Virus record (IMG/VR): IMGVR_UViG_3300028914_000062
Coordinates: 32,001 to 96,000 of that record
Strand: one strand, 5' to 3'
Length of the DNA: 64,000 bases
Source of the DNA: a virus
Taxonomy: Duplodnaviria > Caudoviricetes
Shown here: piece by piece, positions 3,001 to 46,961 of the stretch
How positions within the stretch are numbered: the first letter of the stretch is position 1
How the letters are laid out: every line of letters begins with the position of its first letter
The notes under the pieces: generated by a model
What the model was told of the DNA's origin: nothing
The model's input: only the letters and a program-made list of their open reading frames with translations
Database searches by the model: none
Position numbers and translations under genes: made by a program

Positions 3001-3840
3001 CTCAAGTGTATTCGTGAGACCAAGAGATGTCTGCTCTCTGGTAACTCCCGATTTCTCCATGAGATCATAAATCTCTTCCTCGGTCATCAAATAAGTGTAA
3101 GCGTAGAAGTCGCCCACTTCTCGATCTGATTCATCACGACTGGAGATAAATGCCTCATGTACTGAACGATCTTCTTTATTCAGATAATGAACGTCAGTAG
3201 TAATAATATATTTAATTCCAAAGTGCTTGGAAAGAGCTATCAAAATTGGATTGACAATTTTTGCTGCGTCTGTATCGGCCGGCTGCAACTCAATATAACA
3301 ATTGTTTGCGCCGAAAGTTCTCTTTAGCCAAGGCAGATACCAGTTAATAAAATCGGAATCTCTGGCAAGAATGGCTCGATCCAGAGCAGAGCCGAGACAG
3401 GCGGAGCTGGCAATTAAATGTCCCTTATTGGGGGCCACGATTTCTTCTAAATCGGAGTAAAAGGTAGGTACTCTCCACTGCCCTTTACTAAAATACGCTC
3501 GGTCCCACGCACGAGAACTGATGTGACGAATTTGGTCGTGACCAATCTTATCCTTTGCAATCATCAAGAAATGCGGAAAGACAGAAGTCACCTTATAGTC
3601 TTCCGGTTTAATCAAGTACGATTCGATACCCAACGCAATTTTGAAATTGGGATTATCCTTGCGGATTTTATCTCTCAGCTCAAGTACATCTACGTGGTTT
3701 GCTATTATTTCATGGTCTGTGATTGCAACGCCGCCAAGACCCATCTCAATCGCCTTATTTATAAGATCTTTAGGTCTGACAATGCAATCTAGTAATTTGA
3801 GGTTTGATGCCTCGGTGTGACAGTGTAATGAAGAATACAT
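1..3840 (-). CDS. dnaE: DNA polymerase III alpha subunit (DnaE-type), runs off the left edge
   Basis: Starts MYSSLHCHTEASN..GVAITDHE (PHP domain); GPGRGSSGG and LPDIDSDF polymerase motifs; frame open to position 1 and no minus-strand ORF breaks in the track, so TAG-free over 1280 codons. Confidence 0.93.
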   Translation of the reverse strand, partial: MYSSLHCHTEASNLKLLDCIVRPKDLINKAIEMGLGGVAITDHEIIANHVDVLELRDKIRKDNPNFKIALGIESYLIKPEDYKVTSVFPHFLMIAKDKIGHDQIRHISSRAWDRAYFSKGQWRVPTFYSDLEEIVAPNKGHLIASSACLGSALDRAILARDSDFINWYLPWLKRTFGANNCYIELQPADTDAAKIVNPILIALSKHFGIKYIITTDVHYLNKEDRSVHEAFISSRDESDREVGDFYAYTYLMTEEEIYDLMEKSGVTREQTSLGLTNTLEITAQVEDYDIKANTEVPQIVIPEFTPTYALAPYFAQYPFIEKFAHSEFEADRYLYYLIETSPQLKLIGTTFEVLSRLNTEFEILWGISDALGQRLSSYELLTRDILDLAWNVSFVGPGRGSSGGFLINYLLGITQFNPLQYGLVEWRFLNLSRIQKDEQGHVKGGGELPDIDSDFNNVKIDEIIELMRQHYGANKVLKTLTIKTMTLKSAIINSCRGLGNISNDEAQALAALVPAVRGIQYTFEQCLNGDEERELPAVPNFEVALKSYPRLFETVQQLEGLWCGRGQHASSVYVFSGEEGYLEHNSLLRAPNGTPMTMFNMKASDKLGALKEDLLVTDAMSKIQKCVQLMLEGGAMEWQGSLRATYNKYLHPDVLNQTDKTMWEKMANGEVISLFQFGDSKVGRECIKKIRPTSISELGLVNDTMRLQSPNTEQPIDTLFRYKNDPSEWEKDAKNAGVTDEEIEILRPLLKKTHYMCTQQETLMLVLMDPHISCFTLAEANHARKILAKKIMKEVAGLEELYFKKCADNKVSKPFADFVWESCIKVQLAYSFCSIHSHAYSLIALQEANLACFYDPMYWACAVLTVTAGGDTDVDMQEAFGDEEEETVSDEEVESENSGKRAVATTNYGKIAKAIGDLKGYGYQVDLPDINRAHLEFFPDIENHSIVYGLLAITNVNTELAQKIVQNRPYTSVQDFWTKIQPTNVQMISLIKAGCFDKLYASRHVAMRTFLRFLAEQKYTKKDKITTANLEKAISFKIIPQEYELAIRTFAFKKWCEANQLKVETKMMELSDEDGITFFQNYLQDDMKTKDYNVMPDGVIQIKQSIFNKVITAKLSQLMEWLNSDEGRTKYYEGEIATFIDDIWEKYCEGTVSTWEMNSLHYYYHDHELAKMSSSAYNLVNFNSLPEDLQPVGKRVNKQGKEFDVYKIENIVGTVIDTDNNKHIVTILTPHGVVDVKFYKGAFIHYNKNISKLNDKGKKTVIEKSWFVRGNKVMISGVRR

Positions 3841-3868
3841 CCTATGTCTCCTTTCTTAATCTTTAATA

Positions 3869-3897
3869 ATTATAACACGGCATCGAATATTTGTCAA
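3869..3897 (-). promoter_or_regulatory. sigmaA/sigma70-type promoter upstream of dnaE
   Basis: TTGACA-17bp-TATAAT perfect consensus with TG extension; preceded by GTGAAATAACGC motif. Confidence 0.8.
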
Positions 3898-3944
3898 GCG
3901 TTATTTCACGTTTTTTCAAAAAATTCGATGCCGTCCAATAATGA

Positions 3945-4937
3945 TTAAAAATCGAACTTGAATTTCTTCGGAGCATAGCTCGTAGTTGCCTGCGTGCTTA
4001 AGTAATGCTCCATAACCTTTTCATGATTTTCAATTCCTTCCCACTTATTCAAACACTCATAAGTGGAATTTTGCCTTGTCCATAAAGAGTGATATGGACA
4101 AAGTCTTTTACCTTCTTCGGGCTGATTGGGGTTGGTTGCACTAAACGGACACCAATAGCAAAGCGGAGAGGGGCTCGGAGTCCAGTCTTGCTTATCAATA
4201 TTAGCAAGATTTTTCTCAATTTTAGTCATTCCACGCTTTAACCAGCCTTTTGTGCCTGCACTTTGGCGCATATCACAGAATGGAAGGTCGTAATTAAATA
4301 AAATCATTGTTTCATCCGGATCGACCTACTATATATTGTATATAGACAAAGCGTAGACCACAAGCTGTAGTGGTGTCTTGGTATCCTTTTCATCGAATGG
4401 ACGGTCTCTCGTCTTAATATCCTCGATAAGATATTTATTTTCGTCTTTATACTTCCAAAGTCTATCAATGAAGCCTTTGAAGACGGTATTGGCGAAAGTA
4501 AACTCGAAATATTTTTCGACTGCGACCAGTTCAAGTTCAGGATGCTCCTTAGCAAAGTTCTCCAATCTATAAATGCCTTCGTTAAGGTAATTTGCACATT
4601 TGACTGCGTAGCAAGATCCGCGAGCGTCTCGCTCAAAATAGGGGGTGGGATATTTCTGCTTGAGTATGTCCAAACCGTAAATACCACCACTCTGATCAAA
4701 GGGGCTGGTCTTGGGAATATTAATATGCTGGAACTGATCTTTTAAGTTCTCATAATCAATCGGCTCTCCATTAATAATACACTGACCAATCTGCTCTTCG
4801 ATATGGTGAACGAGAGTACCCAGATCTATTGCAATCGACGGCTGATCGATAAAATGTTTATCCTCGTATTTAAGTTTGTAAGCCCAGGGACAGTTGACGT
4901 ACTGATTAAGACGAGAATAAGAAAACTTAGGTTTCAT
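3945..4937 (-). CDS. PD-(D/E)XK (RecB/AddB/Cas4-like) nuclease, 330 aa in code 15
   Basis: SYSRL..C.W, GTLVH, FKGFIDRL, IEDIKT, QLVVYA motifs and C-terminal CxxCP..C; two adjacent TAGs join ORFs 4329-4937 and 3945-4307 in frame. Confidence 0.88.
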
Positions 4938-8011: not shown

Positions 8012-8476
8012 TCACAGATCCTCCATGTTGAATTTGGGTTTTCGCATTTCATTGACCGGATTTTTTATGGTAACGTGCGTAACATCGGTATTTATGGGTT
8101 TTTGCATATTGCGTTCCATCAGTGCCATACGTTCCATATAATATTGTCTTGCTTCGTCATACTTATATTTAATGACATACAGTCCGTACTCGGGAGTGGG
8201 CTTCATGCCCTCAATCTCGTAACAATAATAGAGCGTATACATCATTCCTGAATATTGTTTGCCTTCCTTGGCATACTTATCAATCATGATTTTCCACTCA
8301 GCGGGTACATCATTGAGTCCGAAAACCTTTTTGATGTACCCGCATAATTGACTGTAATCTTGCTCCTGAGCTCGGATCTGATCGGTCATAGCCTGGTAGC
8401 AATTGGGACAATATTTTTTTCCAGCAAGTGTTAATGGAGTTTCTGTGCGTTGCCCACACTTACTACAGGTTGCCAT
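8012..8476 (-). CDS. Zinc-finger protein (CxxC..CxxC), possible replication accessory factor
   Basis: MATCSKCG..YCPNCY; lies between the AAA ATPase and helicase genes; TAG-free. Confidence 0.6.
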   Translation of the reverse strand: MATCSKCGQRTETPLTLAGKKYCPNCYQAMTDQIRAQEQDYSQLCGYIKKVFGLNDVPAEWKIMIDKYAKEGKQYSGMMYTLYYCYEIEGMKPTPEYGLYVIKYKYDEARQYYMERMALMERNMQKPINTDVTHVTIKNPVNEMRKPKFNMEDL

Positions 8477-8483
8477 GGGTTAA

Positions 8484-9518
8484 TTACAGACCGGCTTCTT
8501 CGAGACCGGCAAGAAGTACTTCGAGCTGCTCTCTCTGAGCTTCAGTGGCATCCATGGCACGGAATTCCTTCGTACCAAGAACGCTGCCCATTACATCATA
8601 ATACTTATCGATGTTGCCACCGTTGGCTTCACCTATAGCGGTGACTTTGTTGCCAATGGCTTCGATAATCTCACTGATGGGGCGCTTAGCCTGGGCCTCT
8701 TTTGCAGCTTTGGTCTGCTCTTTCTTAACCGCCTGATCGACGGTAATGGTCTTCTGACCAGATTCTTTGGCCTTCATATCAATGGCATTGATTAAAGCCT
8801 GCTCAAGCTTTTCGAGGCTCCAATCCTCTATATAAGGAGGCATATAATCAAAGTTGGTACCAGCATGGAACGCAGGCGAACCATCGAGGAAGAGAGTGGA
8901 CTTCATCGGCTGGCCAGCAGGAGCCGGAGCAACCTTCGCGTAACCTATGATATTGCACAGGTTGCAGATGGGATCGATAACTCTCTTATCGCCAGCAGGG
9001 TATATCTTAGTATATTTCTGACCAGTCTCATCGAGGAACTCGCGCTCGGTCTCGTGAGTAATATAGATTACAAGATAGCCAGCGGCATTGAGAGTGGTAT
9101 TGATGGCTCTGAGGTGTCTCTCGATTTCAGTCGAGAACTCTTTCCAAAGGCCATAACCTCTGTTACCATCGTTAACTCTTGCGACGCCATAGGTGGCGCA
9201 AATGAAGTCGGCACAGAGCATACCCATCGAGTCAGCACCGTCAATTATAACGGTAGAGTAAAGCTCCTTGGCTTTCTCAAAGGTAGCCGGACCAGTGAGC
9301 TGCTTAACGAAGCTCTGCCAATCGGCCCACTTCTGGATCTTAACATTCGGAATACCGCCAATGGCGGCAAGACCATTTTCAAAGCAAGCAACTATAGGCT
9401 TTTTGGCCTTTATAGCGTTTGCAGTTTTGCCAGTTCTATTGGTGCCATAGAGAAGAATACTCTTACCCTGCAGACCACGAACGACTTCCGAAACTTCGGG
9501 ATTAAAAATATCTACCAT
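8484..9518 (-). CDS. AAA_24/Sak4-like ATPase (single-strand annealing/recombination)
   Basis: LLYGTNRGKT-type Walker A (LLYGTNRTGKT), VIIDG Walker B, ITHE; adjacent to SSB; TAG-free. Confidence 0.8.
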   Translation of the reverse strand: MVDIFNPEVSEVVRGLQGKSILLYGTNRTGKTANAIKAKKPIVACFENGLAAIGGIPNVKIQKWADWQSFVKQLTGPATFEKAKELYSTVIIDGADSMGMLCADFICATYGVARVNDGNRGYGLWKEFSTEIERHLRAINTTLNAAGYLVIYITHETEREFLDETGQKYTKIYPAGDKRVIDPICNLCNIIGYAKVAPAPAGQPMKSTLFLDGSPAFHAGTNFDYMPPYIEDWSLEKLEQALINAIDMKAKESGQKTITVDQAVKKEQTKAAKEAQAKRPISEIIEAIGNKVTAIGEANGGNIDKYYDVMGSVLGTKEFRAMDATEAQREQLEVLLAGLEEAGL

Positions 9519-9553
9519 AAAGTATCATCCTTTCTCAAAATTCTTATATATAA

Positions 9554-10654
9554 TTACCAAGAAACGGTAGGCTTGGAATTAGAGACGGAGGGAGCGGTGG
9601 TAGTGTTTTCAAAACCCCACGGCGGAATATTGTCTTCCTCTTCCTCGACCACAGGAGTGGCCATAACAGGAGGCTGGGCAGGGGCAGCAGGAGCAACAGG
9701 CTTCGCAGGAGCGGTAGCCGTAGGCATACTGAATGCCCAATTCTTATTCTGACCCTGCGGCATCGCAGGAGCAGAGGGCTTAGCAGAGTTTTTCTGAGCC
9801 TCTGCGACTCTTTCAGCAACGGCAACTTCTCTCTTGGCAAGAAGATCTCTCATCTCGTCAATCTGGAAAGCGGTCGGATTGTCGGAGTCGACAGGATAGG
9901 CGCCACCAGTAACAATAAGCTCGTGAGTGAATACGGTTTCAGTCGTACCTTCAATGCCGGTACCGAAAGCCATAGGAGCCGCTTCTTTCTTGACAACAGA
10001 ATAAGAATTGACAAGATAACCAGCTATACGAGCAGTCATCTGAGGGGCATAGAGGTTCGCGGCCTGATCGACAAGAGTCGGCTCATTCACTACGAACTTA
10101 AGGATCGAAGCGCCCTGCGACGAATAAGGCTCGGGTACAACACCTATTATTTTAACATTATTGCCTTCGGGATCAACCTGAACGGCTTTAACCATGCACT
10201 CAACATCAAAAGTGGAGTGAGGATTAAACGGATGCGCCGCATCAATAGTCTTGAAGCCAAAGCTAAAAGCACGGATGCTATAGTCATAAGCTTCGGGAGC
10301 GTTGCCGCGAATATATTCCTGAAGGGTACCGATTACGTAAACCTTGCTGGCCACTTCTGCGGCGGCATTAAACGTAAGGTCTTTGTTGGAATTAAGCGCG
10401 GTCGCTATAGTGCTGGTGTACTGCGGGAGCATCTTTACAAGTTTCGCGTACTGAGCGTTCTCGCCCACGACATTACCCTGAGCATCGCGCTTCTGCTTGC
10501 GAACATAAATCTGCGTACGGATGGAATTGTGCTCATCAAGAGCAACGATAACGCTACCGGAGACGACGTCGTCGCCAGATTCGGTGCGTTTCGCTTCGAG
10601 ATTGTTTTCTCTAAGATAACCTTCAATAACTACTTTGTTTACAAATTCTCTCAT
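9554..10654 (-). CDS. Single-stranded DNA-binding protein (tandem OB folds, acidic/Pro-rich tail)
   Basis: NKVVIEGYLRE start, second OB-like segment, C-terminal EEEEDNIPPW; TAG-free. Confidence 0.7.
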   Translation of the reverse strand: MREFVNKVVIEGYLRENNLEAKRTESGDDVVSGSVIVALDEHNSIRTQIYVRKQKRDAQGNVVGENAQYAKLVKMLPQYTSTIATALNSNKDLTFNAAAEVASKVYVIGTLQEYIRGNAPEAYDYSIRAFSFGFKTIDAAHPFNPHSTFDVECMVKAVQVDPEGNNVKIIGVVPEPYSSQGASILKFVVNEPTLVDQAANLYAPQMTARIAGYLVNSYSVVKKEAAPMAFGTGIEGTTETVFTHELIVTGGAYPVDSDNPTAFQIDEMRDLLAKREVAVAERVAEAQKNSAKPSAPAMPQGQNKNWAFSMPTATAPAKPVAPAAPAQPPVMATPVVEEEEDNIPPWGFENTTTAPSVSNSKPTVSW

Positions 10655-32570: not shown

Positions 32571-35500
32571 TTAACAGTGACGTGACAAATCAGCAGCTGT
32601 TTTAAGTTCTTTAACAAATTTATCAATGTTAAAGTCTTTATCAGCGTTCATCTTAATCATTAAGCTGTTAATAATAAGAGAATCCTCGGTATTCGAGGTA
32701 GAATTGTTATTAATAATGCCTTTTGCCTCAAGCGATGCGAGCGAACGTAACAGGTTTGGAGCGACTTCACCGAGAGCCCATACGTTTTTGGTAATGTCTG
32801 CGGGAACAATACCTGTGCTACTGGGTAGGGCGGTAAATGTACCCTGAGGAGTGATAATGCCTTCGGTACCATTTTCGTTTATAAAGGCAGAACCTCCTCC
32901 AAACGACAATGATCCGCTAGCAATATAAGAAGGGCCCACACCATAACCGATGCCAACGTCACCGCCCGGAGACGATGAATGACCAGAGGTCGCTACTGTT
33001 AAGGGCATAAAGTGATTATCTACTAATGTATATAATTTACCTTTTACATTAATAACATCGCCCTAGGTTTTTGCCCACTGAAGAGCATTTTCGAAAGTTG
33101 TGTCTCCTGTTAATGGGTTGCTGTCCCCCATAGATTCCAAATCTTTTAATACGGTATTATCACGATTCTAAGCGGTCATTTCACCGGCATTCCACCCAGA
33201 AATCTTATAAGTTTGGCCCCCATACGTGAATGTGGGGTTATAAAGGGGGGCCTGAACATTTGTACCCAAATAATAGGCCTGGTCCGCATAGTCTTTCTCT
33301 GATCCAGTTCCTTTAACCAACGTAATAAGCTTCTATTGAGCGGCCTGATAGGTGTCATAAGCCGCCTTCTTTTTTCGCTGTCCTTCAACGGTATTGGCAA
33401 AGTCCCCATTTATATAAGCATTATAAGCGACTTGTGCATCAGTAGCGGCAAACCCCACCTCAAGAGCGTTAAGATTTTCAACCCATTTAAAAATATCACC
33501 AAGAGACATTTTGCCTTCCCATGTCTTTTGAAGTGTTAATAAAGCGCTATTAGCCGTTTCTGTGGCACCAATAAACGTATTATATTCATTTCTCAAATCA
33601 GCGATCTCTTTAGCGCTAGCAACTTTAGAAATCATATCTTTACTATATTGAAGTTCTTTAATCTATGCTTCAATTTCAGAAAGAGTTTTGCGATTTTCAA
33701 TGTCTTCCAGTTCTTTTTGGGCGTTGGCAATGGCTTCTTGATTTGCCTCGTAAACCCAACCTACACCCTCACGCCAAACTCTTTGCTTTTGATTTCTTGC
33801 GTCTTCAAGTTTTTGCTTTGCCTTAATTAAAGTGAGTTCATATTCTCGCTGATTATTAATATCTTCAAGAGCAGCTTTCTATGCTGTAAGGTTGTCAATT
33901 TCCAACCCCAAATCATATTCGAGCACTTTTCTTGCTGACTGCACACGTTTTGCTACAGATTCTATTTCTATTGCCATAGAATTTAAATACTTTTGTAAAT
34001 AACGATACCAATCTGTCTAAGTATAATCACTTATACCTAAAGTCGCCAATTCAGATGCTCCATATCCAGCTTTTTCCAATTGAGAAAAATCAGTAATACC
34101 TAATTTTTGCCATACGTTAGCCACTTCTGTAAATCCGCTAAATTTTTTAGTCATTGTATTTATTAAAGCCTAGAAAACATAGGGACTTGTTAATTGATCT
34201 TGAGCATATTTACCTATGTATAGCTAAGTATAAGTCTCACGCAATTTCATTAAACTATTAATAGTGCTATTTCGATTGGATAAATCACCCGTAATTCCAG
34301 CCTAAGCAAATTTCGTTGATAAAGAAGTAATATCTTCTGCAGAAAGTCCTTGTCGACTATATAACTTATCAAGCATATCATCCACTTCGCTTAAACGAGC
34401 AGCCGTATCAGCAGTACTTCTAAAAACATCTTCTGAAGTAATCAAACGCATATATTCGGGCATTTGCTCCATTTTTTCTATAGCCTCTGCAGCACTATTA
34501 GTGTAAATGCCCCAAGCATTAGCTGCGGATATAACCGTCTAACTTAACGACTCTAAATCTTCTTTTAAATCGGGTGGGGTCTCGACTTGTTCGTTTAATA
34601 ATTTCCACTTAGAAACTTGTTCGTTTAATAATTTCCACTTAGAAGCTAAGGTGGTAAAAGAACCAGAAGTATCATTAAAACGCGAATTTAACGCTTCAAT
34701 TGTTTTTAAATAATTATTAATCTCTGTTTTAACAGAGGCTTTAATAGCTCCATTCTCATAAATTTCGCCTTCTCCTTCAATACCAGCTAAGGCAGCAGCA
34801 ATTTGACCCGTGATCTAATTTAACGTTAATGAATGAAGTGTCTCATCTTCCAATGTAAAAGCCATATTTTGATATGCTAACTAAATGTTGGAACCACGAA
34901 TCTCTTTTACAAGTTCATTGTATGATGTCCAATCTTGTAGCCCCTCTGATGCACCAGACATAAGATCAGAAACAACAGATTTTACTAATTTTTCCCCCTC
35001 TGTTGAAAAAGGATCTATTTCAAACGAATCTTTAAAAACCTACTACACAATCGATTCGATTTCATACTAAGGCGCTCCTCGTTGTAAAAACTCTGCGGTA
35101 AAATTGCCAGTAGGATTATATATATCTTGTCCAGCAACATTTGCCTATACAATCGAGTTCATTATCCCTTGCTTAACTAGTTCCGTAACAATGAGGTTTG
35201 CCTCACCGATACGTGCGGTTGGACTCTGGTCACTACCACGCGCAAATTCGCTCCATGCGGCCAGTGTTATAGGATTTTTCATATACAAATCAAAAATATT
35301 AATTCCCGTGGTGTCTACATATTTCTGTAAAGCCTTTGCCACACTAGACTAAAACGCTGGCTGAATCATTAATTTATCCGACCCAAATATTGTATAATTA
35401 CTCCAATCACCAGGACCAGATTTATATTCTAACTATTCTCTGGTTAATTCAGCTTTTTCTGTCTATTCAGCAATGGTATTTTCCGTATTAATAATCTACA

Positions 35501-38500
35501 AGGCCATTACAGCTTTCCATTTTTCAAGAAAACTACCAGATACTAAAGTATTATTTAAGTCAGTTATAGCATCAGAGTGCTCATCAAGAGTGTGTCCAGT
35601 TAATTCCATCCACCTTTGCTATCCTTCGTAAGAAGCTAATAGTGTCGAACCAACATCGGTCACTTCACGACTTAATTCTGCATAATCTTCAGCAGATAAA
35701 ACGGCACCAGAAGTTAACTCAGAAATACGTTCAATAGAACTATTGGTATCAATCGCTTGTACGATAGCGTCGGAAGCCTTTTGAATGGCTTCATCTCGCT
35801 TTTTAGCATCTTTATCAAGCTCACTAATCCATAGATCAGAAAACCACTCACCTAAAATAGAGCCCGCTTGCGCTCCTATCATTGTTCCTGTAGAGGACTT
35901 GCTAACCACTGCGCCAAGTGCGCCAAAAATCGCCGTAGACGCTCCAATAGTTAAACCTTTTATTCCTTTGTCTCGATTAGAGCCAGATCCCAATAGTCCT
36001 GCTGATAATCCAGCAATTAAACCCAATCCAGCAGCTACGGCAGCTCCTTGGCTTCTAGTAAACATAGCACCGCTGCTTTTGGCCGCCGCAGAAGATTGCA
36101 TTGGACGTCCATCTGGTCCAAGTATCGGCGACGCCTAAGAGCCCGTACTCGACTAAGGCGATTGTGACGTAGAAGATTGCATTGGACGTCCATCCGATCC
36201 AAGTATAGGCGATACCGACGCATTCGCATCACTACTTCCACTTACCGATCCTCCTCCGGAAGGTGCTACACTTAGTGTAAAACTGCCTTCTCCATTGGGT
36301 GTAAGTCTTATGCGAGATATTATATTTCCTAAAGGATTGACAGCTGGAATTACACCCATTTGAGTAAACATACGGTCTCCAACAAATTTCATAGTTAATG
36401 CTCTAATTATTAAAGGAGCATAATCAATTATTGTGCTTGCTAAATTATATAAAATTTTCAAAAGACCACTAGAATCAAGTTTCTAAATGAAGCCTTCCCA
36501 ACTAGATACCAATCGTTTCTAAGCTGCTTCTACACTGTTAAGATAAGCTTCGTATTTGGTTTCAGCTGTACCAGAAGAAGTTCTCGACATTTCACTAATT
36601 TCTTCCGCTGTACTATAATTCTCAAGTAATATATTGACAAATTCTCTTTGTCTGGTACCACCAAGAGCTGTCGCAACGGCATTCTTGCTAACAGAATTGA
36701 GTGTGTGCCATTTTTCTGCAACATCTGCGATAACCTCTTCAAACGGTCTCATTTCAAGAGCGCTCGAACGGATGGATATACCAAGTTTACGAAGAACTTT
36801 TTCAATATCGTTTATATTTTCAGTAGAAGAAGTATCTCCTTCATCCCCCTCGAGCAGCGACATTTTACTAAAGACTCCCGCTTTAACATTGCCGTAACGA
36901 GAGAACATTGTTTTAAGAGCGTTACCAACACGAGATGGAGAGGCCTGCGAGGTCTCAATAATCTCAGTTGCATAACCAACAATATTGTCAATATTAACGC
37001 CAGCCAGACGTGCTGATACAGCAGTTTGCGATAATGCTTCGGCAATACCACCGGCGCTCGCAGCATAATGCATATCGACTTTCGTTAACTTGGAAACAAT
37101 ATCCATAGAATCAGAAGCTTCCAGGTTAAAGCCCTTAAGCATCGAGGTAAGATACTTTGTTGCTTCACCAGCTTCAATCATACCAAGTTTAGAAAGGGCC
37201 ATAGACGATTGCACCAGTTTATTAGTTTCAGTAACATCATAGCCCTGTCTCATCCACAAGTTAGCCGCTTTTGCCACTTCTTGAGTAGTAGCACCAAGCT
37301 ACTTGGCCAAATCAGAGTACGAAAGCATTAATTGATCAACTTCTTCGCGACTCTTTCCGGTAACGATCTGGAGGTCGACAGCTGCGGCGTCAAGTTGTTT
37401 AGTAAGTTGAAGTAATTCCTTTATCTTGTTGACAACACCGGAAACCATCATCATTGGTAAAGACCATTGCATATAATGCTATATAGCGCCACCAATAGCC
37501 AATTTGGCCCGACCCAGTACAGAACGCTACATTGAATTAGTTTGAACTTCATATTGAGCACGAGCTCTGTATAAATTAGCCAGCTCTGGATTACTCTCTG
37601 CTAGTTTATCCATCTAAGCATTAAATAATTCGCTCTGCTGTGTAGTATAAGCATCAGTTGCTGCTGCCCATTGTCTAGCCGCTCCCTTTGCGCTTACTGG
37701 GGTGAACCAAGAGTGAGATTTTTGCCAGGCAGTATTCTACTACCCTAAAGCACTAATATACTTATCATAGGCCTAATATCCCGCCGTTTCTCTCGTCGTC
37801 TTGACATCTATATCCGCACCCAACATCTATCTTTCCATAGCTGCATATGCGGGGGAATTTTTATCTAAAGTGTTCATAAGCTTAGTATTATGCTATTTCG
37901 CATTTTCTGCTTTTTTTGCATAAGTTTGCGCTAATTTAGACATCTATTCTGCCTTGGTACCGGAAGATGCTTTCATAGCAGCGGCCTATACTGATAAAGT
38001 GTCAGCTAATCGAGTAAAATTTAAATAATCTTGTAAATTATCATTAAAAACGTTAACTGTATCGTCTGTTGCTCCATAATCTGGGGCTATCTATTCGGGA
38101 CTTAAAGCAACCGGGGCCCCAGGTAAACTAGTTAAGTCTCCCAAGGCATCGGTCATATCTCTTTTAATTTCATCGGCTTTACCTTCATAGCTCTTTAACC
38201 CACCAGCGGCTAGTGTCAATTCTGCACGACCGCTTTCGTCAATTTGAGATCGTAGCGACGCCGCTTTAGCAGTTTCGGTTTCAATATCTTTAGTGAGCTA
38301 ACGATATCTTGGACTAGATTTATCTACAAACTATAGTAAATTTTTTAAAGACTCGACCCTACCAATAGAAGAAGTTAACCCAGATTTAACTGATTTTGCC
38401 TGATCCCAAAATGCAGCTCTAGTCATACCAAAAGCTGCAGGAGCGCCCTTTTCCCCGGGCCGTGTTATCGACCAGGTATTTGTCGGCAAACTGTTTTCTT

Positions 38501-41500
38501 TTTGATAATCACTCCAATTAAGAGAGTGTGTACCGGTTGCCCATAATCGAGTACCATCCGCAAATTCAAAAACAGTATAAGATAAACCCGATGTAGCATC
38601 AGAAGCCGCATAAGAAGCTATTGGTGTTTGACCCTGAATTAATTTACTATTTTCATATCCCATAATAAGCTTTATCACTCCTTTCTCTATAGTTAAAAAC
38701 GGTAAGATACTCTTACCATACATTTTCTATAACTCCAATGCTTGTTCTGGAGTTAAAACATATTCACTATCTAGTTTAATATAATCTTTCTTTAAAATAT
38801 TGGCGGCAGCTTGGGCAAGCTTCTCATATTCTTTTGCAGCAATGGCTTCCATTCTCTTTTGCTACTCTGCAATATCATCGTTATAAATTTTATCAAAACG
38901 AGACTATACGACATCATTAGAAAAGAAATCGCCCTCTTTGCGCCAATATAAAGCACCCGCTTTATCTACTGCGCTTTCGGTCATGTTCAAAAATTGACCC
39001 AAAGTAGTTAAAATTCTTACTTTGTCGGCATTGTCACCGTTGGCCAGGTCCATAATAATAGTACCTAATCTCCAAGCGGCCAGTGCGTCCGCATCGGCTG
39101 TGTGTGCAGTACCGGCGAATAGTCCTAAACGATGACCTATTGTTTCCAACTTTAAGTTTTCAAAAACCTTGCCTCCGAAAACATTATTAGTAAATGACCG
39201 TAACAAAGTGGACAAATTACCGTTTAAAGTGGTTCCATTACCTAATGTTACAGATAGCTGAACATTTTGCGCCCAAACGTAAGTATCCTATAATACAGAT
39301 TTACTAATATCTTCAGCAGTATTATAATTATGAAGATAATATCCGCCTTTGCTATCCTTGCCAAAAATTTTAAGTTTAGCAAAACGGTCCATTAAGGAAT
39401 CTACTTGCTACGCTGTCCATCCCTAATCGGTAATGGTCCTCATACGCACCAATGTTTTAAGTAAAAACGGCGCGTCAAATCCTGTTGGGCCAGCATTATG
39501 TCCAATTAGCATGTCAGTATCTGGATTAAATTTTGCCTTTTCAAGCGCAGAAACAAATTGATCCAACGCATTAAAAACGGTGGTCAAGTTTTTAACCGGC
39601 TTACCCTTATAAAATAACTCTCCATTTGATTTCCATTCAAAGCCTGTGGCCTAAGCAGCGCCAGCCTAATTAGCTCTTGCACGATTCAAATAATTAGGAT
39701 CAACATTAATTTTAATACGTTTACCATCTGGAAGCACAATACCCATCTAAAATAAAGCCGGAATAGATTTACCTTTTTGTCCTAAAAGACCAGATGTCTC
39801 AAAGTCAAAAGCGAATAACCTACGTTTACCAGCAATAGTATTACCAATATTCTTTCCTTTAATAGCGTATACACTATTAATCATATTGTCTATTTGCTCG
39901 TCAGATGCTGTTGTAAAATGCCTCTTTAATATACGTCGCACCGATGAAGAAGACAATTCTCCCGTTTTAAAACTTGCAAGAAAGTCATCTAATGACATTA
40001 CTTCTAATTCATCAATAACCTCTGTAATAGTGTCTGGAGGAGGAGCTAATGAATATTCATCAGCAATTTTCTAAATACTTTCTCTGCTTGTTAAATCAAA
40101 ATCATCAGGATCTTCTCCCATAACCTCTAAAGACATGCTTACATAGTTTGCAAGGTCAGATAAATCATAAGAAGGGTCTAGCCAACGATCTGAATCGTAA
40201 TCATCTGGATTATAATTTGCATCATCTCTATCGGGTTCAGAAGTTGGTTTTTTCCTAGCTATTCCATAAGCTGCCGCAGACACTCTGGCAGCGTGCTACT
40301 CATCCATAGCAACCTCTTTAAACACTGTAAATATGTCTATTAGCTTATTATGAAACTCTTGAGAAAATGCGGACTCGCGTAGCAATTCTTGGCGTAACAT
40401 AGTTAAATTTATTCCAACGTTTGCAAATTTAGCTTTACGAGTGGTGAATAAATTTTCTAAGGTAAGCCCTTTAAACTTATTATTGGTTAATTTGATAACT
40501 CTATTCAGAACATCTACAAAAATCTTTTTATCATTATTGGGAATATTAGTATCAGATAATTTTTCTGCTAACTATTCAGCATCAAACAATCTTTCTTCGT
40601 TATCCCATAATGCTTTTTCTGCCGCTTTGTGCATTGCCACTTCACGCTCAAGATCGGTTAACTCATCTTCATTAGCTAATGTTATATTAAATGATTTATC
40701 TTTTATCATTTGATTATAATACTCATTCAATGAATCGGACACATTTTGTTTCTTAAAATCTGTAACAGAAGACGTTTCAAACTCATTGACAACAGACAGC
40801 GTTAATTGAGCATCTACCAATGTGATAGGTATCTGATTTAATATTTGCTATGCCGCCTCCACATCAGCCAATTTCAAAGTCGATAATCCTAAAGCTGCAG
40901 AAATTAAATTTTCTACATTATAATTAGAGTTAGATTTGGGTAAATTTCCTAAAATATTTTCGAATTTTTGTTTAACAACTGCAAAATTATTTACATTATT
41001 AATTTTCCACGCCAATACCTTAGTCAACGCAGGCTTTAAAAGTTCGGTATTAAAAACTTCTCCCCGCGCCAGTAACTAAACTCTTTTTAGTAAATCTTGT
41101 TCTGCGCCCATATAAGAATTACGATTGGCCGATATTATAGCGGGATGCAATTGGGTTTCGGTCAGTGCTTCCCCAAGTCGAGATATTCTTGAGGCTGCCT
41201 ATCCAGATCCGCTGTCAGATAATAAACGCTTTGAAACGGTTTTTACTGCATCTTTTAATGCGGCAATTTCTGTTCCACTTAGTTTAGGTAACTGCATTGC
41301 CAAAATAGAGTCAACGTCTTTGAGTCCCTTTAGTATCTAGGGGAGAGCATCATTATATACCTTACTATATAACTAATAATTATTTGCAATATTTAATAAT
41401 AATTCATACGCCGTATCAGATATATAATCCTTGGCTAATGAATCAAACCCGCGAAAACCCGGTCCTGACCATCCCATATCATCCATAAATTGATTAATGA

Positions 41501-44500
41501 GTGTGTTTCGTGCTTCAAAATCACGCAAATTAATCTACGAATAACCAATAACAAAAGTTTTAATTTTTTTCATTATCTCTAAAGACTAATGTGCACTTAT
41601 TTGATTTTTAGTTTCCGCTGGACGTTGATGATATAAAGTTCTGTGCTAATCATAAATTATACTGGAAAACGCATTAGAAACGGGTTCGGTTAAGGGTTTT
41701 CCATCTACCGTGGTCGGTTTAATATTTTTTAAAGCTTCAGTATAACCACGAATTCTTTCAAAAAGATACTTTAAATCTGCTAAAACTTTAGAATTATGAA
41801 CATAGTCGGGCGTTGTTGCCACGATTTTCTTTAATTTTCGTAGAGCTTCGTCTCTTTTTTTTATTAATCGAATTTCCGCAGCTGTAAAAACCCTTTTCTG
41901 CTCTAATACTTCTTCTTCTACTTGTGATTTCCTTGGCTTTTCCCAATTCCTACGTTGGGCACTCTAACGATATTTTGGAGGCAAATGATTGCCATAGTAA
42001 GTTTCAAAAGCGGACTCCATTTCGGCCACAAATATTTTACCCATACCATTAATTTTTCCTTCAGGTAACAATTCATCTATATCTTTAGTAGCGGTTTTTA
42101 AAAGTTTATCTCCAGACTAATGTCTAGTAATAGCAAGACCTATCCAACCATCATCTGTTGTTTCTCTGCCATCGAAATTAGTAGTCGTAGAATATAATTT
42201 ACTAAATCCGCGCTCAGTCAAAACAGCCATAATCGCTGTATAAATACTAGGATAATCTTCACAAATTGCAAACAAACGTTCCATAGCAAATTCCTGATCT
42301 GCTGCACTAATATTTACAGTAGATCCATTTTTTAAAGTTGTTTGTCCAGTTAATGCCTATTGTAACCAAGATGCAGTACTTACATATCCCCAAGGGTTAA
42401 TCTTATAATCTACTCCTTGTTTTTTGCCAGCATCATATAACCATTGCGATTTAATTTTATCCGCATTAACGTTTTTTATATTAGAAATTTTAGTAAACAC
42501 AATTTCATCAACGGCATCATGAAATCGAGTACCTATAGAACCATAAGCGCCGCCAATCCTCAAAACCCTTTGAGCCCACCTGGTTATAGCGCCACTATTT
42601 CTTATATCAGATAAATCCATAGAATTAAACAATGACTGTGCATACGCATCGGCTTTATCAGGCCCCTAAGTTTTATAAATAGATTTATAAACCGTAAAAA
42701 TTTCATTAACTGAATTATTTCCGGTTAATAGTTCGGCCTAATCAACACGCATCCATTTGTCGCCCTATTTATAATAGGTCGCTGATCCATCTTCTGTATA
42801 TCGATCTTCAGCTCTACCATAAAAAGTAAAATATTTTTGACCAGGATATTTCTTACGCATTAATTCCAATCTGGCTATTGTATAAAAAGTTTTACGATCT
42901 CCTGTTGGATCGAACCCCTAAGATTTTACAACTTGTTCACGTTCGCCTCGAATTGATACTTCAGACCCAAACGGATTAATATCTGTCTGTTTATTTTCCG
43001 CAGCGTCTTTAATCAACTAAACGGCTTCGCGATCTGAAATATTTCGCACACTAATAGGGTGGAAAAAAGTGTCTTGTCGTCCAAATGGTACAACTTCTGC
43101 TCTAATATCGGCTCCACTAAAATGAGGGTCGTGGCGTAATATCGCGGCCTGCATTGCGACCTCAAGACCACCATACAAACCACCATTTTTATATTCTTTA
43201 CCAGATTTAAAATCTCGAATTTCATAAAACACCTTACCGGTTTTTATATCTCTAATTTTATACAATCCATCAATCGTAGCAGATCCCCAAATTGGGTTTT
43301 TATGCGTACCAAAATTGGCATAAATCTCTTTTTCACTAAAAATTTTTTCTACCTTAAATCTATTAGACGGATATTTGGCATTATAATATTGCTACGCATT
43401 TATAATTTTTTGAGTACCAACAAAATTGCCAAATTGATTAAAAAAATGAGTTCCATATTTCTACAATACTAAATTATTAGAAGTATATAATCCCATTTCA
43501 GACAGTTCTTCATCAGTAATTTTATGTGCCTTCCAAGCGGTCTCAATATCTTTTATAGATAAATTAGAGATTTTATTGGCTTCATAAAGTTCCAAAAGTT
43601 TATGGAAGGCCGTACCATATGCGACAGCTCCATTATTGCCCGTTCCAGAATAAGTAGAACCAGATGTAATTTTACCAACATAAGAAGCCGATATCACATG
43701 CGATTTGGGACTTAAATCAACCTTCCACTACTAAGTTTTGTTATCAAAAACTGCAGTAAAAGATTCGTGCTATGTTTTTAAAAATTTTACCATAGCGATC
43801 TTTTGCTATGCTTTATTTTTAATGGATAAAATATCTTCGGGAATATAGCCTTTAGCATTAACAAAAGTAATGTTTCCTGCCTAATAATTGTTTAAAAAAT
43901 CAGAACCATTTAAACGAAAAACTCGTTCTTTGTTTCTATGCGCCAACTCTTGTCTACGGCGATTTTTTACTTCATTGGGGTTCCATTTCTCCCATTGTAA
44001 AAAACCGCGATTTGATTTAGAGCGCCAATTTGGGTTATTTTTATTATCAGAAGTCCACTAGAAAAATTCGCTAACTGGTCTACCAGGAAATTTCTTTATC
44101 CACGCAAGCAATAATTTACCCTCTGGTCTATTTAAATATCCTGACTCTTTTAGTTTATGATAATCAGTATCATTTAACCAATCATTAAAACCGCGTTTTG
44201 TTTGGTTTTTCCAATATGACTCTGTGGTAATATCTCTTCTCCATGCAATAAACTCACTCACAGGATGGCCGGGAAATTTTTTCATCCACGCCTTAAGAAG
44301 TTGACCCTTTGGGCCACCCAACTTACGACTTTCTGGAGAAGGCTTATATTGAATATTACCAATCGAAGTCTCTCCAGCAACATAAGGCTTAGACGGAGAA
44401 GGAACACCGCGAGCGCCAAACTGAGAGGCTTGTGCCTGGCGACGATTTTCTTGTGTACGTTTAATATTCGCCAATATTGGTCTTCCCTCTTCGTATTCTA

Positions 44501-45308
44501 TGTCCATTAATCTGAAATTAGCGTCTTCCTCGTCAAACTTGCCGTCAATAATAGAACGTGTAAAATAATTAATTACCTATTCTTTCGTAAAATGACATGT
44601 TTTAAATAAATAATCTGAGTCCTAAGAGGGTATTTTTTTAATATATTTTTCAATATCTCCTCGTCTAGCTTGGATATCTTCACATGCCATACGAGCCGAC
44701 TTATTGAAATCTTTTAACCATATTTCATAATTTTTAAGCGTCAAAGCTCCACTATGCCAATTTTTAGCCCATGTAGGCTAAGGTGCGCCCAACTATGGGG
44801 TAGTTGCACTATAAGTCGAATAAACAGGAGAATCTATATTAGTCCATTCATGCTCGGTCCAAACTCCCCATTGAGAAATAGAATTAAATACCTCCACCCA
44901 CTACTTTAATTCTTGAATATTCTTTGTACAAAACTTATTAATTTCGTTAATATCTATAGAGCCATAAGATAATATAGCAGATTGATATTGATCAATAGTC
45001 TAATTTAACTTAGGAATAATAGAGCTAATAATGCCCGGTCCTTCTTCTAATAGTATTTTTGCCTTATAACGCCCCGCAGCATTCCATTTCGTCATAGCTA
45101 AATCAACACGTTCTTCATATTTGGCGATTAAAGCATCTTTTTGTTCTTTGGTTAATTTAGAATATGCGCGAGTCTACTGATTTAACTACTGAGCCTCATC
45201 CTCCAAATCAAACGGTACAGATGAATCGATTTTTTGTGCAAGTTGAGCCTACATTTGCACGCGTTCTCGACGACGTTTTCTTGCCCATCTACTTGACGAT
45301 TTGCTCAT
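32571..45308 (-). CDS. Giant tape measure protein (4245 aa) with N-terminal PD-(D/E)XK nuclease and DEDDh exonuclease domains
   Basis: 15 ORF-track fragments all in one frame; manual scan found about 84 TAG and no TAA/TGA; GGAGGAG RBS; TP901-type TMP core (LGATTQEVAKAANLWMRQG..GNALKTMFSR) at ~36520-37420; hydrophobic segments ~35860-36050; C-terminal AFINENGTEGII motif. Confidence 0.9.
34585..34644. repeat. 30-bp in-frame tandem duplication inside the TMP (SKWKLLNEQV x2)
   Basis: ACTTGTTCGTTTAATAATTTCCACTTAGAA twice in tandem. Confidence 0.9.
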
Positions 45309-45345: not shown

Positions 45346-45954
45346 TTATTTCTCTTCTTTTTCTTCTTTCTTCTCAAACATCTTCTCTGTTGCCTTCGCA
45401 AGCGGATCGATGCCATTAAGAAGCATACCAAGTCTCTCAAGATCCTCAGTCTTCATTTTCTCCTGGAATTCCTGAAGGCTCTTAGTCATCTCATCGATCT
45501 TCGCCGGATCAATCTTGTCAAGTTGATCGCGGTTACTTAAAATAACATTCCAGTTAATCGCATTCGCATAAATTTCTTTAAGTTTCGCATAGTCCTTCGC
45601 ACAAACCTTCTCAATATCATCAAGAAGGCCTGTGGGCTCCAGGAAATCTATAATATCAACCGTATTAAACATTTCAACAAGATCATTCTCAATATTGGTG
45701 TATAATTCAATCAAGCCAAATACCTCAATATTGGCGAGTTGTTCGAGGCCTAAAATTATAATATCATTATCAGTACTAAATCTCATAATCGCTTTCACAA
45801 GCGCCACGTTCTTATCCTTAACAGGAGCATACTCTCTGACAATCAGACGTCTTTTAATATTCGCCAGAGCATCGGCGTGCTCACCATTCTAGTCATCATC
45901 AAGCTGCATTGCATGCAGCATAATTTCGCTAAGTTGTATATTCTTTTCTAACAT
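45346..45954 (-). CDS. Hypothetical protein preceding the TMP (tail assembly chaperone candidate), 202 aa
   Basis: AAAGGAG RBS, ATG at 45954, one TAG; position directly upstream of the TMP. Confidence 0.6.
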
Positions 45955-45977: not shown

Positions 45978-46961
45978 TTAAAAATCAAACTTATCTTTTT
46001 GCTACTGAAGCATCTTCGGATCAACCTTAATATAATGCTTCTGCGTAACATCCAAACCTTTGTGATTCAAAAGTTTAGATATATCTTCCAATTCCATACC
46101 CAAATTCTTAAGCAGTGTAGCACCACTATGTCTAAAATCATGCGGGTGGAGTGTGGACACACCAATCAAATTGCCAATAATACGCGCCCACAGGAACATA
46201 ACGGAGGCGTCAGTAATGCCGCCGCTTTTTGTTACAAATAATAGTCCATTGTCCTCAATCTGCATTTCGGATCGAAACGCCTTGAGTTTTTCTAGAAGCT
46301 CTTTAACCTCGTTGGAAAAATACAATGAAACAATATATCCTTCTTTCTCAACAACGTCATTAATAACGCGCCCCTCCAAATCGATCTGGTCCCATTTAAT
46401 AGAACTAACTGCACTGGCGCGGGCCATCGTTGATAAAGATAACATACCATAAACCCAGACTTCAAGAGCCAAATGTCTTGCAGTCACACCAACAGCCGTC
46501 TCAAAATTCTCTGCAAGCTTCTCTCTCATCAAAGTCACTTGTTCCGGCGTCAGGTAGGTCTGCACTACAATATCGGTATCCTTCTGCGGACGACTCACAT
46601 CCTCCATCGGATTTACAGTAATAATTTTCTTCTTTCGTAAAAACTTATAGAAAGCTGCGAGAGAGCTAATGCGTCTCTTAAGGCGACGGGAATTATTCCC
46701 TTGCTCTTTACAGAAATAAAGAAAATCAGTAATGTCGTCCTCATCCAGGTCCGTAACACAGCGATTCTACTGCTCGTCCAAAATATAAATCCACCACTAC
46801 CGTAGATCGCTATAATACTGGTAGATCGTATCTTCTGACAGTTCACGTAGCTTCATATCTTTTTCATATTTCTTCCATAGCTACAAAGTTTCTGCGTTTA
46901 CTTTTGCGAGCTTTTCTGCATCAAACAGTTCAATCCGCTCGCTTCGAGTTCCGATCGGCAT
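45978..46961 (-). CDS. Tyrosine recombinase (XerC/D-like), 327 aa in code 15
   Basis: Catalytic set R (TMARASA), K (VEKEG), HDFRH, LNH, TQKHY; N-terminal SAM-like region; several TAGs. Confidence 0.9.

Follow-up and report, generated by a model that had tools for sequence, protein, structure and literature searches.

The window, by which we mean the whole 64,000-nucleotide stretch of viral DNA that was analysed, carries on its minus strand a giant gene located in the tail module, between upstream tail-assembly genes and genes for the distal tail. A tail protein (phrog_1887) is encoded downstream of this gene. The phage is probably a long-tailed virus of gut Bacillota with a genome of ~135 kb, in which TAG has been recoded to glutamine. 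The features of the locus are as follows.

45346..45954, minus strand: conserved 202-aa gene directly upstream, found ahead of the giant gene in 25 related loci irrespective of extension length
32571..45308, minus strand: whole tape measure gene, 4,245 codons in code 15 (TAG = Gln), with an AGGAGG ribosome binding site 6 nt before the ATG
37689..45308, minus strand: N-terminal extension, aa 1 to ~2540, lineage-specific, dN/dS 0.14 versus a relative of 90% identity
43119..43691, minus strand: PD-(D/E)XK (RecB/Cas4-like) nuclease-type domain, aa ~540-730, proposed from phrog_69 and a motif alignment, dN/dS 0.086
39940..40240, minus strand: acidic Asp/Pro-rich linker, aa ~1690-1790, ahead of the exonuclease-type domain, read from the translation
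39039..39836, minus strand: DnaQ-like DEDDh 3'-5' exonuclease-type domain, aa ~1825-2090, proposed from P0003 and PHROG/NCBIfam matches, dN/dS 0.087
32571..37688, minus strand: conserved tape measure part, aa ~2540-4245, with homology to the C-terminal part of every relative
36657..37313, minus strand: PF10145 (PhageMin_Tail) core, aa 2666-2884, E 7.9e-27, 94.9 bits against a cut-off of 33.2
35859..36056, minus strand: Gly/Ala-rich hydrophobic (glycine-zipper-like) segment, aa ~3085-3150, kept in a standard-code relative

The reading frame and the tape measure core

Translation of the minus-strand frame from 45308 to 32571 with table 15 yields 4,245 amino acids, with 84 in-frame TAG codons, no internal TAA or TGA and a closing TAA. 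This recomputation agrees with the initial annotation, which had described a single open reading frame with about 84 TAG codons and neither of the other two stops. From base composition, the probability that 4,245 codons lack both TAA and TGA is ~5e-101, and the other two frames of the same stretch contain 184 and 437 of these codons. The ATG is preceded by a strong ribosome binding site (AGGAGG), and no internal ribosome binding site and start codon comparable to the gene's own were found near the tape measure part or its junction with the extension.

An independently assembled relative with 90% identity (P0002/L003) maintains a 4,167-aa frame in which TAG codons are exchanged with CAA or CAG. 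Synonymous divergence between the two genes is 0.15-0.5, and dN/dS is 0.09-0.17 in each segment of the extension. Moreover, relatives that use the standard code carry uninterrupted open reading frames of 2,700-4,500 aa with the same layout and without TAG in the gene. No natural split at the extension/core junction was seen among relatives, and in the one apparently split form that was examined (L041) the interruption is a group I intron. As judged by this frame and its conservation, the 4,245-aa tape measure protein is the product of one intact gene. The competing idea, that the frame is an artefact of TAG read-through and really comprises at least two adjacent genes, coding for a polyprotein of nucleases and for an ordinary tape measure protein, draws only on the general point that a frame is not proved by being open in the code selected for it. 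It is exceedingly improbable: TAG codons align with CAA or CAG in the close relative, no second start is evident near the junction, and, because standard-code relatives have the uninterrupted giant architecture, the idea is refuted as far as sequence can show.

The recognizable tape measure core was originally placed from aa ~2630 onward, and this start is right given the positions of the family matches, with PF10145 at aa 2666-2884 and nine PHROG tape measure families together spanning aa ~2330-3930. Glycine-zipper-like hydrophobic segments such as the one found downstream of PF10145 are typical of tape measure proteins. On the basis of these matches, we conclude that the protein is a genuine tape measure protein, extended at its N-terminus by ~2,500 aa. 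The C-terminal ~1,600-1,700 residues, comprising the PF10145 core, the glycine zipper and the conserved C-terminus, would serve as the conventional ruler and channel-forming part, and the first ~2,500 residues would represent an accessory module that has been added head-proximally.

Two nuclease-type regions in the extension

The initial annotation had proposed that the extension hides two nuclease domains, and the motifs quoted in its favor do lie where they were reported. Those of the PD-(D/E)XK type are YGTAFHKLLE at aa 564, IFSEKEI at 656, TIDGL at 678 and IRDFKSG at 697, and those of the exonuclease type are FAFDFETSG at 1832, LIGHN at 1934, GFDAPFL at 1943 and AHTADADA at 2068. The domain assignments themselves are weakly supported, in that family-level similarities and intact candidate residues speak for them, whereas Pfam and PDB matches are absent and structural models were unusable.

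All candidate catalytic positions (D-x-E, D and H-x4-D in one region; D and D-x-K in the other) are present and identical in the 90% relative. The candidate catalytic residues of both regions are intact and subject to strong purifying selection. Ordered consensus patterns written for the two motif sets are confined to this protein and the 90% relative, and shuffling 170,624 aa of related giant open reading frames produces them 0.005 and 0 times per shuffle; these statistics are supportive only, because the patterns were written after the sequence was seen.

Searches with Pfam, using the whole protein and eight pieces, returned PF10145 alone, with no model even at E 5 on either nuclease region. 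A PDB sequence search with both nuclease pieces produced no match other than spurious sialidase and LolA rows, and tblastn with the same pieces against 50,697 phage records yielded nothing. Scans of IMG/VR, metagenomes and species genomes with the PD-(D/E)XK, exonuclease and middle pieces recovered no relatives. One pattern-selected match from these scans (L001/L002) proved to consist of open reading frames resembling tail-tip protein L that share only one 9-mer, and it was rejected as spurious. AlphaFold2 was also applied to the corresponding domains in L003, the 90% relative. Both models, of the PD-(D/E)XK and DEDDh equivalents, have pLDDT values of ~40 (42.6 and 39.8, respectively) and are unusable, so that the two nuclease folds are putative; a Foldseek search with one low-confidence model gave a meaningless result.

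The candidate residues of the PD-(D/E)XK region are H569, E573, E654 or E659, D680, D699-x-K701 and Q720, with a second motif, D687-x-K689, in between. Its sole family match is phrog_69 (‘exonuclease’; aa 560-705, E 3.3e-4), and in a six-frame search of the genome this family matched just two places, the canonical PF12705 nuclease of the phage and the present stretch (E 1.1e-4). The family phrog_69 is also that of the phage's own separate Cas4-like nuclease (window 3945-4937), which has a four-cysteine cluster. No cysteine cluster is present in aa 515-800 of the tape measure protein, and therefore the region is not Cas4 proper, which would carry a four-cysteine iron-sulfur cluster. Its motifs can be aligned with those of the canonical nuclease, where MAFFT picks the first of the two D-x-K motifs, which are 12 residues apart. 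D680 and both D-x-K motifs (D687-x-K689 and D699-x-K701) are conserved, and the catalytic register is ambiguous. Direct comparison of this piece with the canonical nuclease was not significant with hhalign (P 0.08) and returned nothing with BLASTP. Likewise, six-frame genome searches with PF12705, PF10926, PF01930 and PF22123 gave no match in the tape measure gene, and a search of 5.8 billion proteins with the PD-(D/E)XK piece found nothing. In sum, the region shares with RecB/AddAB/Cas4-type nucleases (PF12705, phrog_69) the order G-x3-H-x3-E, V-E-K-h-F, h-h-D, D-x-K-S/T-G and Q, but it differs from them in having no four-cysteine cluster, no tyrosine in QxxxY, no PF12705 match and an ambiguous register.

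In the exonuclease-type region, the candidate residues are D1835 and E1837 (ExoI), H1937 and D1945 (ExoII) and H2069-x4-D2074 (ExoIII). An exhaustive search of 1.84 billion proteins produced a single match, P0003 (E 4e-4), which aligns over ExoI and ExoII and is a bona fide RNase_T-family protein (PF00929, E 4e-10); the ExoI D-x-E and the ExoII acidic residue are in register with it. The cut-out piece also matches phrog_192 (E 1e-3) and phrog_17 (E 1.8e-3), as well as NF006602 at ExoI (E 0.01) and NF005927, a Pol III epsilon model, at aa 2054-2083 (E 0.12). This last match covers model positions 145-174 and is the sole model support for the ExoIII site, which is itself conserved. Every PHROG and NCBIfam match at E <0.2 is to a 3'-5' exonuclease or polymerase family, and the only other match listed is to a holin family (E 0.27). 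PF00929 does not match the region, either with Pfam on pieces or in a six-frame genome search, and phrog_192, unlike with the cut-out piece, has no match in the gene in a six-frame search. The spacing between ExoII and ExoIII is ~60 residues longer than usual, and because of this insertion MAFFT leaves ExoIII unaligned with P0003-P0005. The low-confidence model is compatible with an RNase H-like alpha/beta fold only in the order of its secondary-structure elements. Relative to DnaQ-like DEDDh exonucleases (PF00929: Pol III epsilon, PolC exonuclease, RNase T and TREX), the region has ExoI D-x-E, ExoII H-N...F-D and ExoIII H-x4-D-A in the canonical order; it differs in falling below every curated family threshold, in its extra residues between ExoII and ExoIII and in being embedded in a 4,245-aa structural protein.

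Related phages and known precedents

Approximately 35 related phages exhibit the same giant layout, and several of them use the standard code, such that two genetic codes are represented overall. The gene is flanked in 18-25 related loci by the same neighbors, namely the upstream 202-aa gene and downstream genes of 1,562 and 1,152 aa. The distance from the core to the C-terminus is 1,473-1,831 aa in 20 intact open reading frames, a constancy that speaks only indirectly for a role in setting tail length and for ejection at infection. The part ahead of the core measures 1,158-2,682 aa in relatives and at least 3,348 aa in L027, and it is dissimilar between lineages. When six pieces of the present extension were compared by phmmer with all open reading frames of 37 related loci, nothing was recovered below E 0.1. 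The extension and the tape measure match are both absent from G001, a genome related at 46%; this absence is uninformative because G001 is a fragment.

The N-terminal part of 17 related loci carries a DFDGD-type site of RNA polymerases, corresponding to the metal-binding DbDGD motif in the DPBB domain of gp96-type two-barrel enzymes. No DbDGD motif is present in the tape measure protein described here, and a profile of the relatives' polymerase-like modules identified nothing in its gene; this phage encodes its RNA-polymerase-like protein in a free-standing gene. One further candidate site, DDYDSD at aa 1703, was rejected as a D-x-D-x-D polymerase site: it lies in the acidic linker, has no R-x-P context and reads DDWDSD in the relative. 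The suggestion that relatives might bear swapped N-terminal enzymes is thus borne out to the extent that their extensions are unrelated and many include an RNA-polymerase active-site motif. In related phages the slot is taken up by other, unrelated modules, often a two-barrel RNA polymerase.

The closest precedent is gp96 of Thermus phage P23-45 (also P74-26, G20c and TSP4), a tape measure protein of 5,002 aa whose N-terminus bears a virion RNA polymerase (Nat Commun 2024; PMC10770324), and the protein described here would be a nuclease version of that polymerase fusion. The N-terminal enzyme of gp96 is present in virions within the full-length protein (PMC10770324). The novelty originally claimed is overstated: that a virion can contain an enzyme joined to the N-terminal end of its tape measure protein was shown for gp96 in 2024 (PMC10770324), and the view of cell-wall hydrolases as the best-known tape measure cargo is therefore no longer complete. 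Both are giant tape measure proteins with an N-terminal nucleic-acid enzyme module (predicted in the present case) and a conventional C-terminal part, and relatives of this phage carry the DFDGD-type site in the same slot. They differ in that the protein described here has two nuclease-type domains, no DbDGD motif and no similarity to RNA-polymerase-type modules, and in that its phage uses code 15, has a free-standing polymerase-like gene and infects a different host lineage, probably gut Bacillota.

Other systems are less similar. The tape measure proteins of T5 (Pb2), mycobacteriophage TM4 and SPbeta (YomI/CwlP) likewise bear enzymatic cargo used at entry, but that cargo acts on peptidoglycan and is distal (C-terminal or internal), whereas here it is N-terminal and its candidate substrates are nucleic acids. 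N4 vRNAP and crAss-like gp66 are pre-made nucleic-acid enzymes delivered with the genome in giant proteins; however, they are podovirus proteins that are packaged in the head and lack a fusion to a tape measure protein.

Possible functions of the extension

The explanation we favor, with moderate confidence, is that this tape measure protein carries an injected N-terminal module composed of RecB/Cas4-like PD-(D/E)XK and DnaQ-like DEDDh domains with intact candidate catalytic residues. By analogy with P23-45 gp96, the whole chain would be built into the virion and would exit the tail either before the leading end of the DNA or along with it, thereby placing pre-made nucleic-acid enzymes at the entry pore. 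Their most likely jobs would be to process or hold the incoming genome end, such as by resection for end-joining or circularization, or to attack the nucleic acid of the host in advance of all phage gene expression. We infer catalysis, virion location, injection and target of the module. A folded domain of ~30 kDa would have little room inside a siphophage tail tube, which counts against this explanation.

Nuclease folds might instead act as non-catalytic grips for nucleic acid, or be purely structural, which we consider unlikely. In characterized siphophages, the N-terminus of the tape measure protein is head-proximal and next to the DNA end. An extension at this terminus could hold the leading genome end, and exit of the tape would then draw DNA into the cell. 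Such a role would also fit the weak family-model scores, the unusual ExoII-ExoIII spacing, the QxxxY motif without its tyrosine and the canonical Cas4-like nuclease that the phage already encodes separately. However, inactivated domains usually lose their catalytic residues, whereas all canonical metal-binding and catalytic positions here are identical in the 90% relative despite the synonymous divergence between the two. It is less probable still that one or both motif sets are a chance resemblance in an extension without any nuclease-related fold. The missing Pfam and PDB matches, unusable models, non-significant hhalign result and spurious L001/L002 match would be expected in that case, but independent libraries return exonuclease and polymerase families in the right places and order in all matches at E <0.2, the P0003 link reaches E 4e-4 against 1.84 billion proteins, and the ordered patterns are essentially absent from shuffles.

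Many tape measure proteins undergo processing. The extension might accordingly be co-translated and then removed by proteolysis during tail assembly, or remain intracellular, so that the nucleases act late and uninjected, for example on host DNA or in recombination in the infected cell. A ruler part of constant length (~1,500-1,800 aa) beside an extension that varies 2-3-fold is what one would expect were the tube filled by the C-terminal part alone. We nevertheless regard this possibility as improbable, given that the fusion is retained in ~35 related genomes and two genetic codes, a sign that being physically joined to the tape measure is important, and that neither an internal start site nor a natural split is seen at the junction. 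Furthermore, P23-45 gp96 is the one case to have been tested, and there the virion contains the N-terminal enzyme within the full-length protein (PMC10770324).

If the extension is indeed in the virion, ready-made nucleases would be delivered at DNA entry for host takeover, genome-end processing or counter-defence, and no description of nucleases delivered by a tape measure protein for these purposes was found in the literature searched. The comparative result may matter more, as ~35 uncultured relatives carry unrelated modules in one slot, and the active-site motif of RNA polymerases is present in nearly half of them. The principle known from P23-45 would then no longer be confined to a few Thermus phages but would also apply to a broad lineage of mesophilic gut phages, and the result points to a general modular route for enzyme injection in long-tailed phages. 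A broader and more tentative proposal, which we consider possible but doubtful, is that the N-terminus of the tape measure protein is a swappable ‘first-in’ cargo bay across 85-170-kb gut Bacillota phages, filled with lineage-specific nucleic-acid enzymes (RNA polymerase in many; two active nucleases and no polymerase here) that are injected at the DNA entry pore. Were this so, infection by this phage would begin not with transcription but with cutting or resection of host DNA or RNA, or of its own genome ends.

The locus also holds a lesson for annotation, as gene calling with the standard code shreds such genes and their extensions escape Pfam. Fragmentation into about 15 pieces had been predicted for this gene, which is close to the approximately one dozen open reading frames of at least 80 aa that table 11 yields.

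One gene for a tape measure protein with a modular extension

Translated with NCBI table 15, the giant gene reads from 45308 to 32571 on the minus strand as 4,245 codons, of which 84 are in-frame TAG and none is TAA or TGA before the TAA terminator, as the initial annotation had proposed. The two other frames over this stretch contain 184 and 437 TAA/TGA codons, and the probability of encountering 4,245 codons without either, as estimated from composition, is ~5e-101. Under table 11 the frame breaks into about a dozen ORFs of at least 80 amino acids, bearing out the fragmentation claimed for standard-code annotation. The sequence AGGAGG resides 6 nucleotides upstream of the start, similar to other genes in the window, and none of the in-frame starts close to where the tape-measure part begins has a ribosome-binding site.

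An alignment-based scan using the core (the PF10145 region) recovered 35 IMG/VR loci and 2 loci from metagenome-assembled genomes. The giant ORF is open in the standard code in many of these relatives (e.g. L008, L011-L016, L025 and L026), including an ORF of 3,796 amino acids in L008 that lacks TAG, and is open only under code 15 in L017-L024. Because standard-code relatives carry the giant ORF open, the fusion was not created by TAG read-through, and we regard these relatives, on the basis of their sequences, as the decisive evidence for one gene. At least one of the forms that look split, the one examined (L041), has a group I intron (RF00028, 83 bits; L041:7955-8239) with a 538-amino-acid ORF (8332-9948) inside its tape measure gene. 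The corresponding genes of L040, L042, L043 and L046 look similarly interrupted.

When residues 1-2600 were searched against 5.8 billion proteins, one long relative emerged, P0002 (4,167 amino acids, 90% identity), which derives from an independent Logan assembly and was called there with TAG as glutamine. Codon-level comparison with this protein gives dN/dS values of 0.16, 0.086, 0.17, 0.087 and 0.14 for five segments of the extension (residues 1 to ~2540) and 0.079 for the core. Identity per 100 residues is mostly 81-100% in the extension, with one stretch at 53%, and is lower in the C-terminal half (34-91%). These data show that the giant tape measure protein with its modular N-terminal extension is one gene under selection. 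Nineteen of the 35 differing TAG codons are CAA or CAG in P0002, and the reverse exchange also occurs; TAG is glutamine in this gene. Four tRNAs (Pro, Met, Asn, Thr) were detected in the whole genome by ARAGORN, which misses intron-split tRNAs and reported no CUA suppressor.

The protein is a tape measure protein, as evident by a PF10145 match at residues 2666-2884 (E 8e-27) and by nine PHROG tape-measure families that span residues ~2330-3930. A tblastn search with the core returned 140 phage records, mostly siphophage tape measure proteins of Bacillus, Lactococcus and Enterococcus at ~25% identity, in which the core sits close to the N-terminus; L005, for instance, is 2,939 residues long and has its core from about residue 137. 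The standard-code relative shares a conserved Gly/Ala-rich hydrophobic segment (residues ~3085-3150) and a conserved C-terminal stretch of ~100 residues. Around the giant gene, the same three genes upstream and two giant tail genes downstream recur in 18-25 loci. Two other features of this region were observed:

45978-46961 (-), gene resembling tyrosine integrases (phrog_1, E 2e-47), placed two genes ahead of the tape measure gene on its upstream side; an odd position for an integrase, within a structural module, kept in 23 related loci
34590-34652 (-), perfect 10-residue tandem duplication (SKWKLLNEQV twice), residues ~3553-3572 of the tape-measure part

Nuclease-type regions of the extension

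Every nuclease motif quoted in the initial annotation was found at its given position. For the PD-(D/E)XK region (residues ~540-730), phrog_69 ('exonuclease', E 3.3e-4, residues 560-705) is the sole family match at E up to 10, and none was found in Pfam, PDB or protein databases. Searched in six frames, the 135-kb genome has two phrog_69 matches: this stretch (E 1.1e-4) and a canonical nuclease.

3945-4937 (-), canonical Cas4-like PD-(D/E)XK nuclease (PF12705, E 1.7e-19; phrog_69, E 1.6e-23), with a C-terminal Cys cluster and 2 TAG codons

An alignment with this nuclease and its 46% homologue superposes SASY/KFSY, YGTAFHKLLE/LGTLVHHIEE and FKVEKIF/VAVEKYF. Pairing D680 (TIDGLY) with D699-F-K701 would form a normal 19-residue hairpin. 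The catalytic register is ambiguous because the D-x-K motif is duplicated locally, IRDIKTGK (D687-x-K689) preceding IRDFKSGK (window 43200-43250, minus strand; residues 685-703), and both MAFFT and hhalign pick the D687-x-K689 copy. The Cys cluster is absent from the region, which is therefore RecB/AddA-like rather than Cas4 proper. The lack of Pfam, PDB and protein-database matches, a non-significant hhalign comparison with the canonical nuclease (P 0.08) and an unusable predicted model (pLDDT 42.6) count against this assignment. We nevertheless consider that the region probably adopts a PD-(D/E)XK fold, and the balance tilts slightly towards its being catalytically active.

For the DEDDh region (residues ~1825-2090), an exhaustive phmmer search of 1.84 billion representatives with residues 1730-2180 returned only P0003 (E 4e-4), a protein that belongs in its own right to PF00929 RNase_T (E 4e-10, exceeding the cut-off). 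The alignment covers 156 residues at 30% identity and includes FDFETSG/FDLEGTG and LIGHN...FDAPFL/LVGHN..FDAPLL. Among PHROG and NCBIfam models, four families match at E <0.2, the one further listed match being a holin family (E 0.27); none was found in Pfam or among PDB sequences.

Family matches to the DEDDh region
PHROG phrog_192, DNA polymerase exonuclease subunit, E 1e-3, ExoI-ExoII
PHROG phrog_17, DNA polymerase, E 1.8e-3, ExoI-ExoII
NCBIfam NF006602, 3'-5' exonuclease, E 0.01, ExoI
NCBIfam NF005927, Pol III epsilon (model positions 145-174), E 0.12, residues 2054-2083, proposed ExoIII

The pair H2069-x4-D2074, within ...LGLFAGTAHTADADALAAW..., fits the usual ExoIII context, and the motif residues are all conserved in the close relative. 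The lack of Pfam and PDB sequence matches, an ExoII-ExoIII interval that is ~60 residues longer than usual and an unusable predicted model (pLDDT 39.8) count against a DEDDh reading. We judge the fold to be very likely and favour catalytic activity with modest confidence. Together, the comparisons support a pair of nuclease-type domains whose catalytic motifs are intact.

Precedent and proposed role

The 5,002-amino-acid tape measure protein gp96 of Thermus phage P23-45 has an enzyme at its N-terminus, an active RNA polymerase (DFDGD, 779-783) that occurs in virions within the full-length protein and that its authors propose to act at the entry pore, transcribing pre-early genes; nucleases go unmentioned in that paper (PMC10770324). 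The protein described here differs in having two nuclease-type domains and no polymerase. Of the nuclease-carrying tape measure protein claimed initially, the single gene and the genuine tape measure identity hold and the two nuclease-type domains are supported, but the principle of an N-terminal enzyme was already published in 2024. Our literature search for tape measure proteins with nuclease domains found none described, and recoded tape measure genes for 3,149-3,209 amino acids are mentioned, unanalysed, for recoded 136-kb gut phages (phAss-1; PMC10607447).

By analogy with gp96, virions would carry the extension next to the leading DNA end, where the head-proximal part of the tape measure protein lies. 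It would enter the cell as infection begins, and its target inside might be the genome end or host nucleic acid. Less probably, the nuclease-type regions could be non-catalytic DNA grips, a reading favoured by the unusually long ExoII-ExoIII interval and opposed by the intact motifs. Removal of the extension by proteolysis before assembly would keep it out of the virion; the gp96 polymerase part stays within the full-length protein. Chance occurrence of the motifs, which is unlikely, would accord with the unusable models and is set against the family matches.

The extension as a variable module

Among 20 intact ORFs, the part from the core to the C-terminus spans 1,473-1,831 residues (1,605 here) and the pre-core part 1,158 to 2,682 (2,641 here); that of L027 is at least 3,348 residues. 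Since the C-terminal part is constant in length, the tail may be measured by that part alone. Between lineages, homology starts just ~60-100 residues upstream of the core, and six pieces of the extension gave no match among the relatives, which makes the extension cargo specific to its lineage at a fixed position. Two tandem ~55-residue repeats in it (window 43968-44324, minus strand; residues ~329-447; …KLL.AW.KKFPG.PVSEF…W…RGF..W…) are matched by no known family.

Relatives with swapped N-terminal modules, as anticipated initially, do exist: 17 related loci carry a DbDGD motif (NADFDGD, GDFDGDK, NADYDGD, GDMDGD) in the same slot. Loci with R-x-P ... DbDGD are L008:3458-14848, L013-L015, L025, L026, L027/L028, L033, L035-L037, L039-L041, L044 and L046. 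In ten aligned regions D-x-D-G-D is invariant, as are an R-x-P ~40 residues before it and a Q..I..K after it. With E values up to 10 allowed, their profile matches 17 PDB sequences, all but one being RNA polymerase beta' or largest subunits aligned at the R-x-P...NADFDGD active site, with phiKZ gp55 at the top (E 0.0024); L026 also has a sub-threshold PF00623 match. P23-45-type fused polymerases thus probably extend, judging from these motifs, to gut Bacillota phages. The window's own protein lacks DbDGD and is unmatched by the profile. A nuclease-only variant within a large family with swapped modules places the finding well above the ordinary.

Outside the window, a free-standing 939-amino-acid ORF with ADFDGD (G000:C1:101904-104720, plus strand) is a candidate single-subunit RNA polymerase. 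In L027:2-21049 and L028, a frame of more than 7,016 amino acids stays open through the whole 21-kb locus and is cut off at either end. Within it lie a DFDGD site and the PF10145 core, and its C-terminal domain is VgrG3-like (PF21277, E 2e-33).
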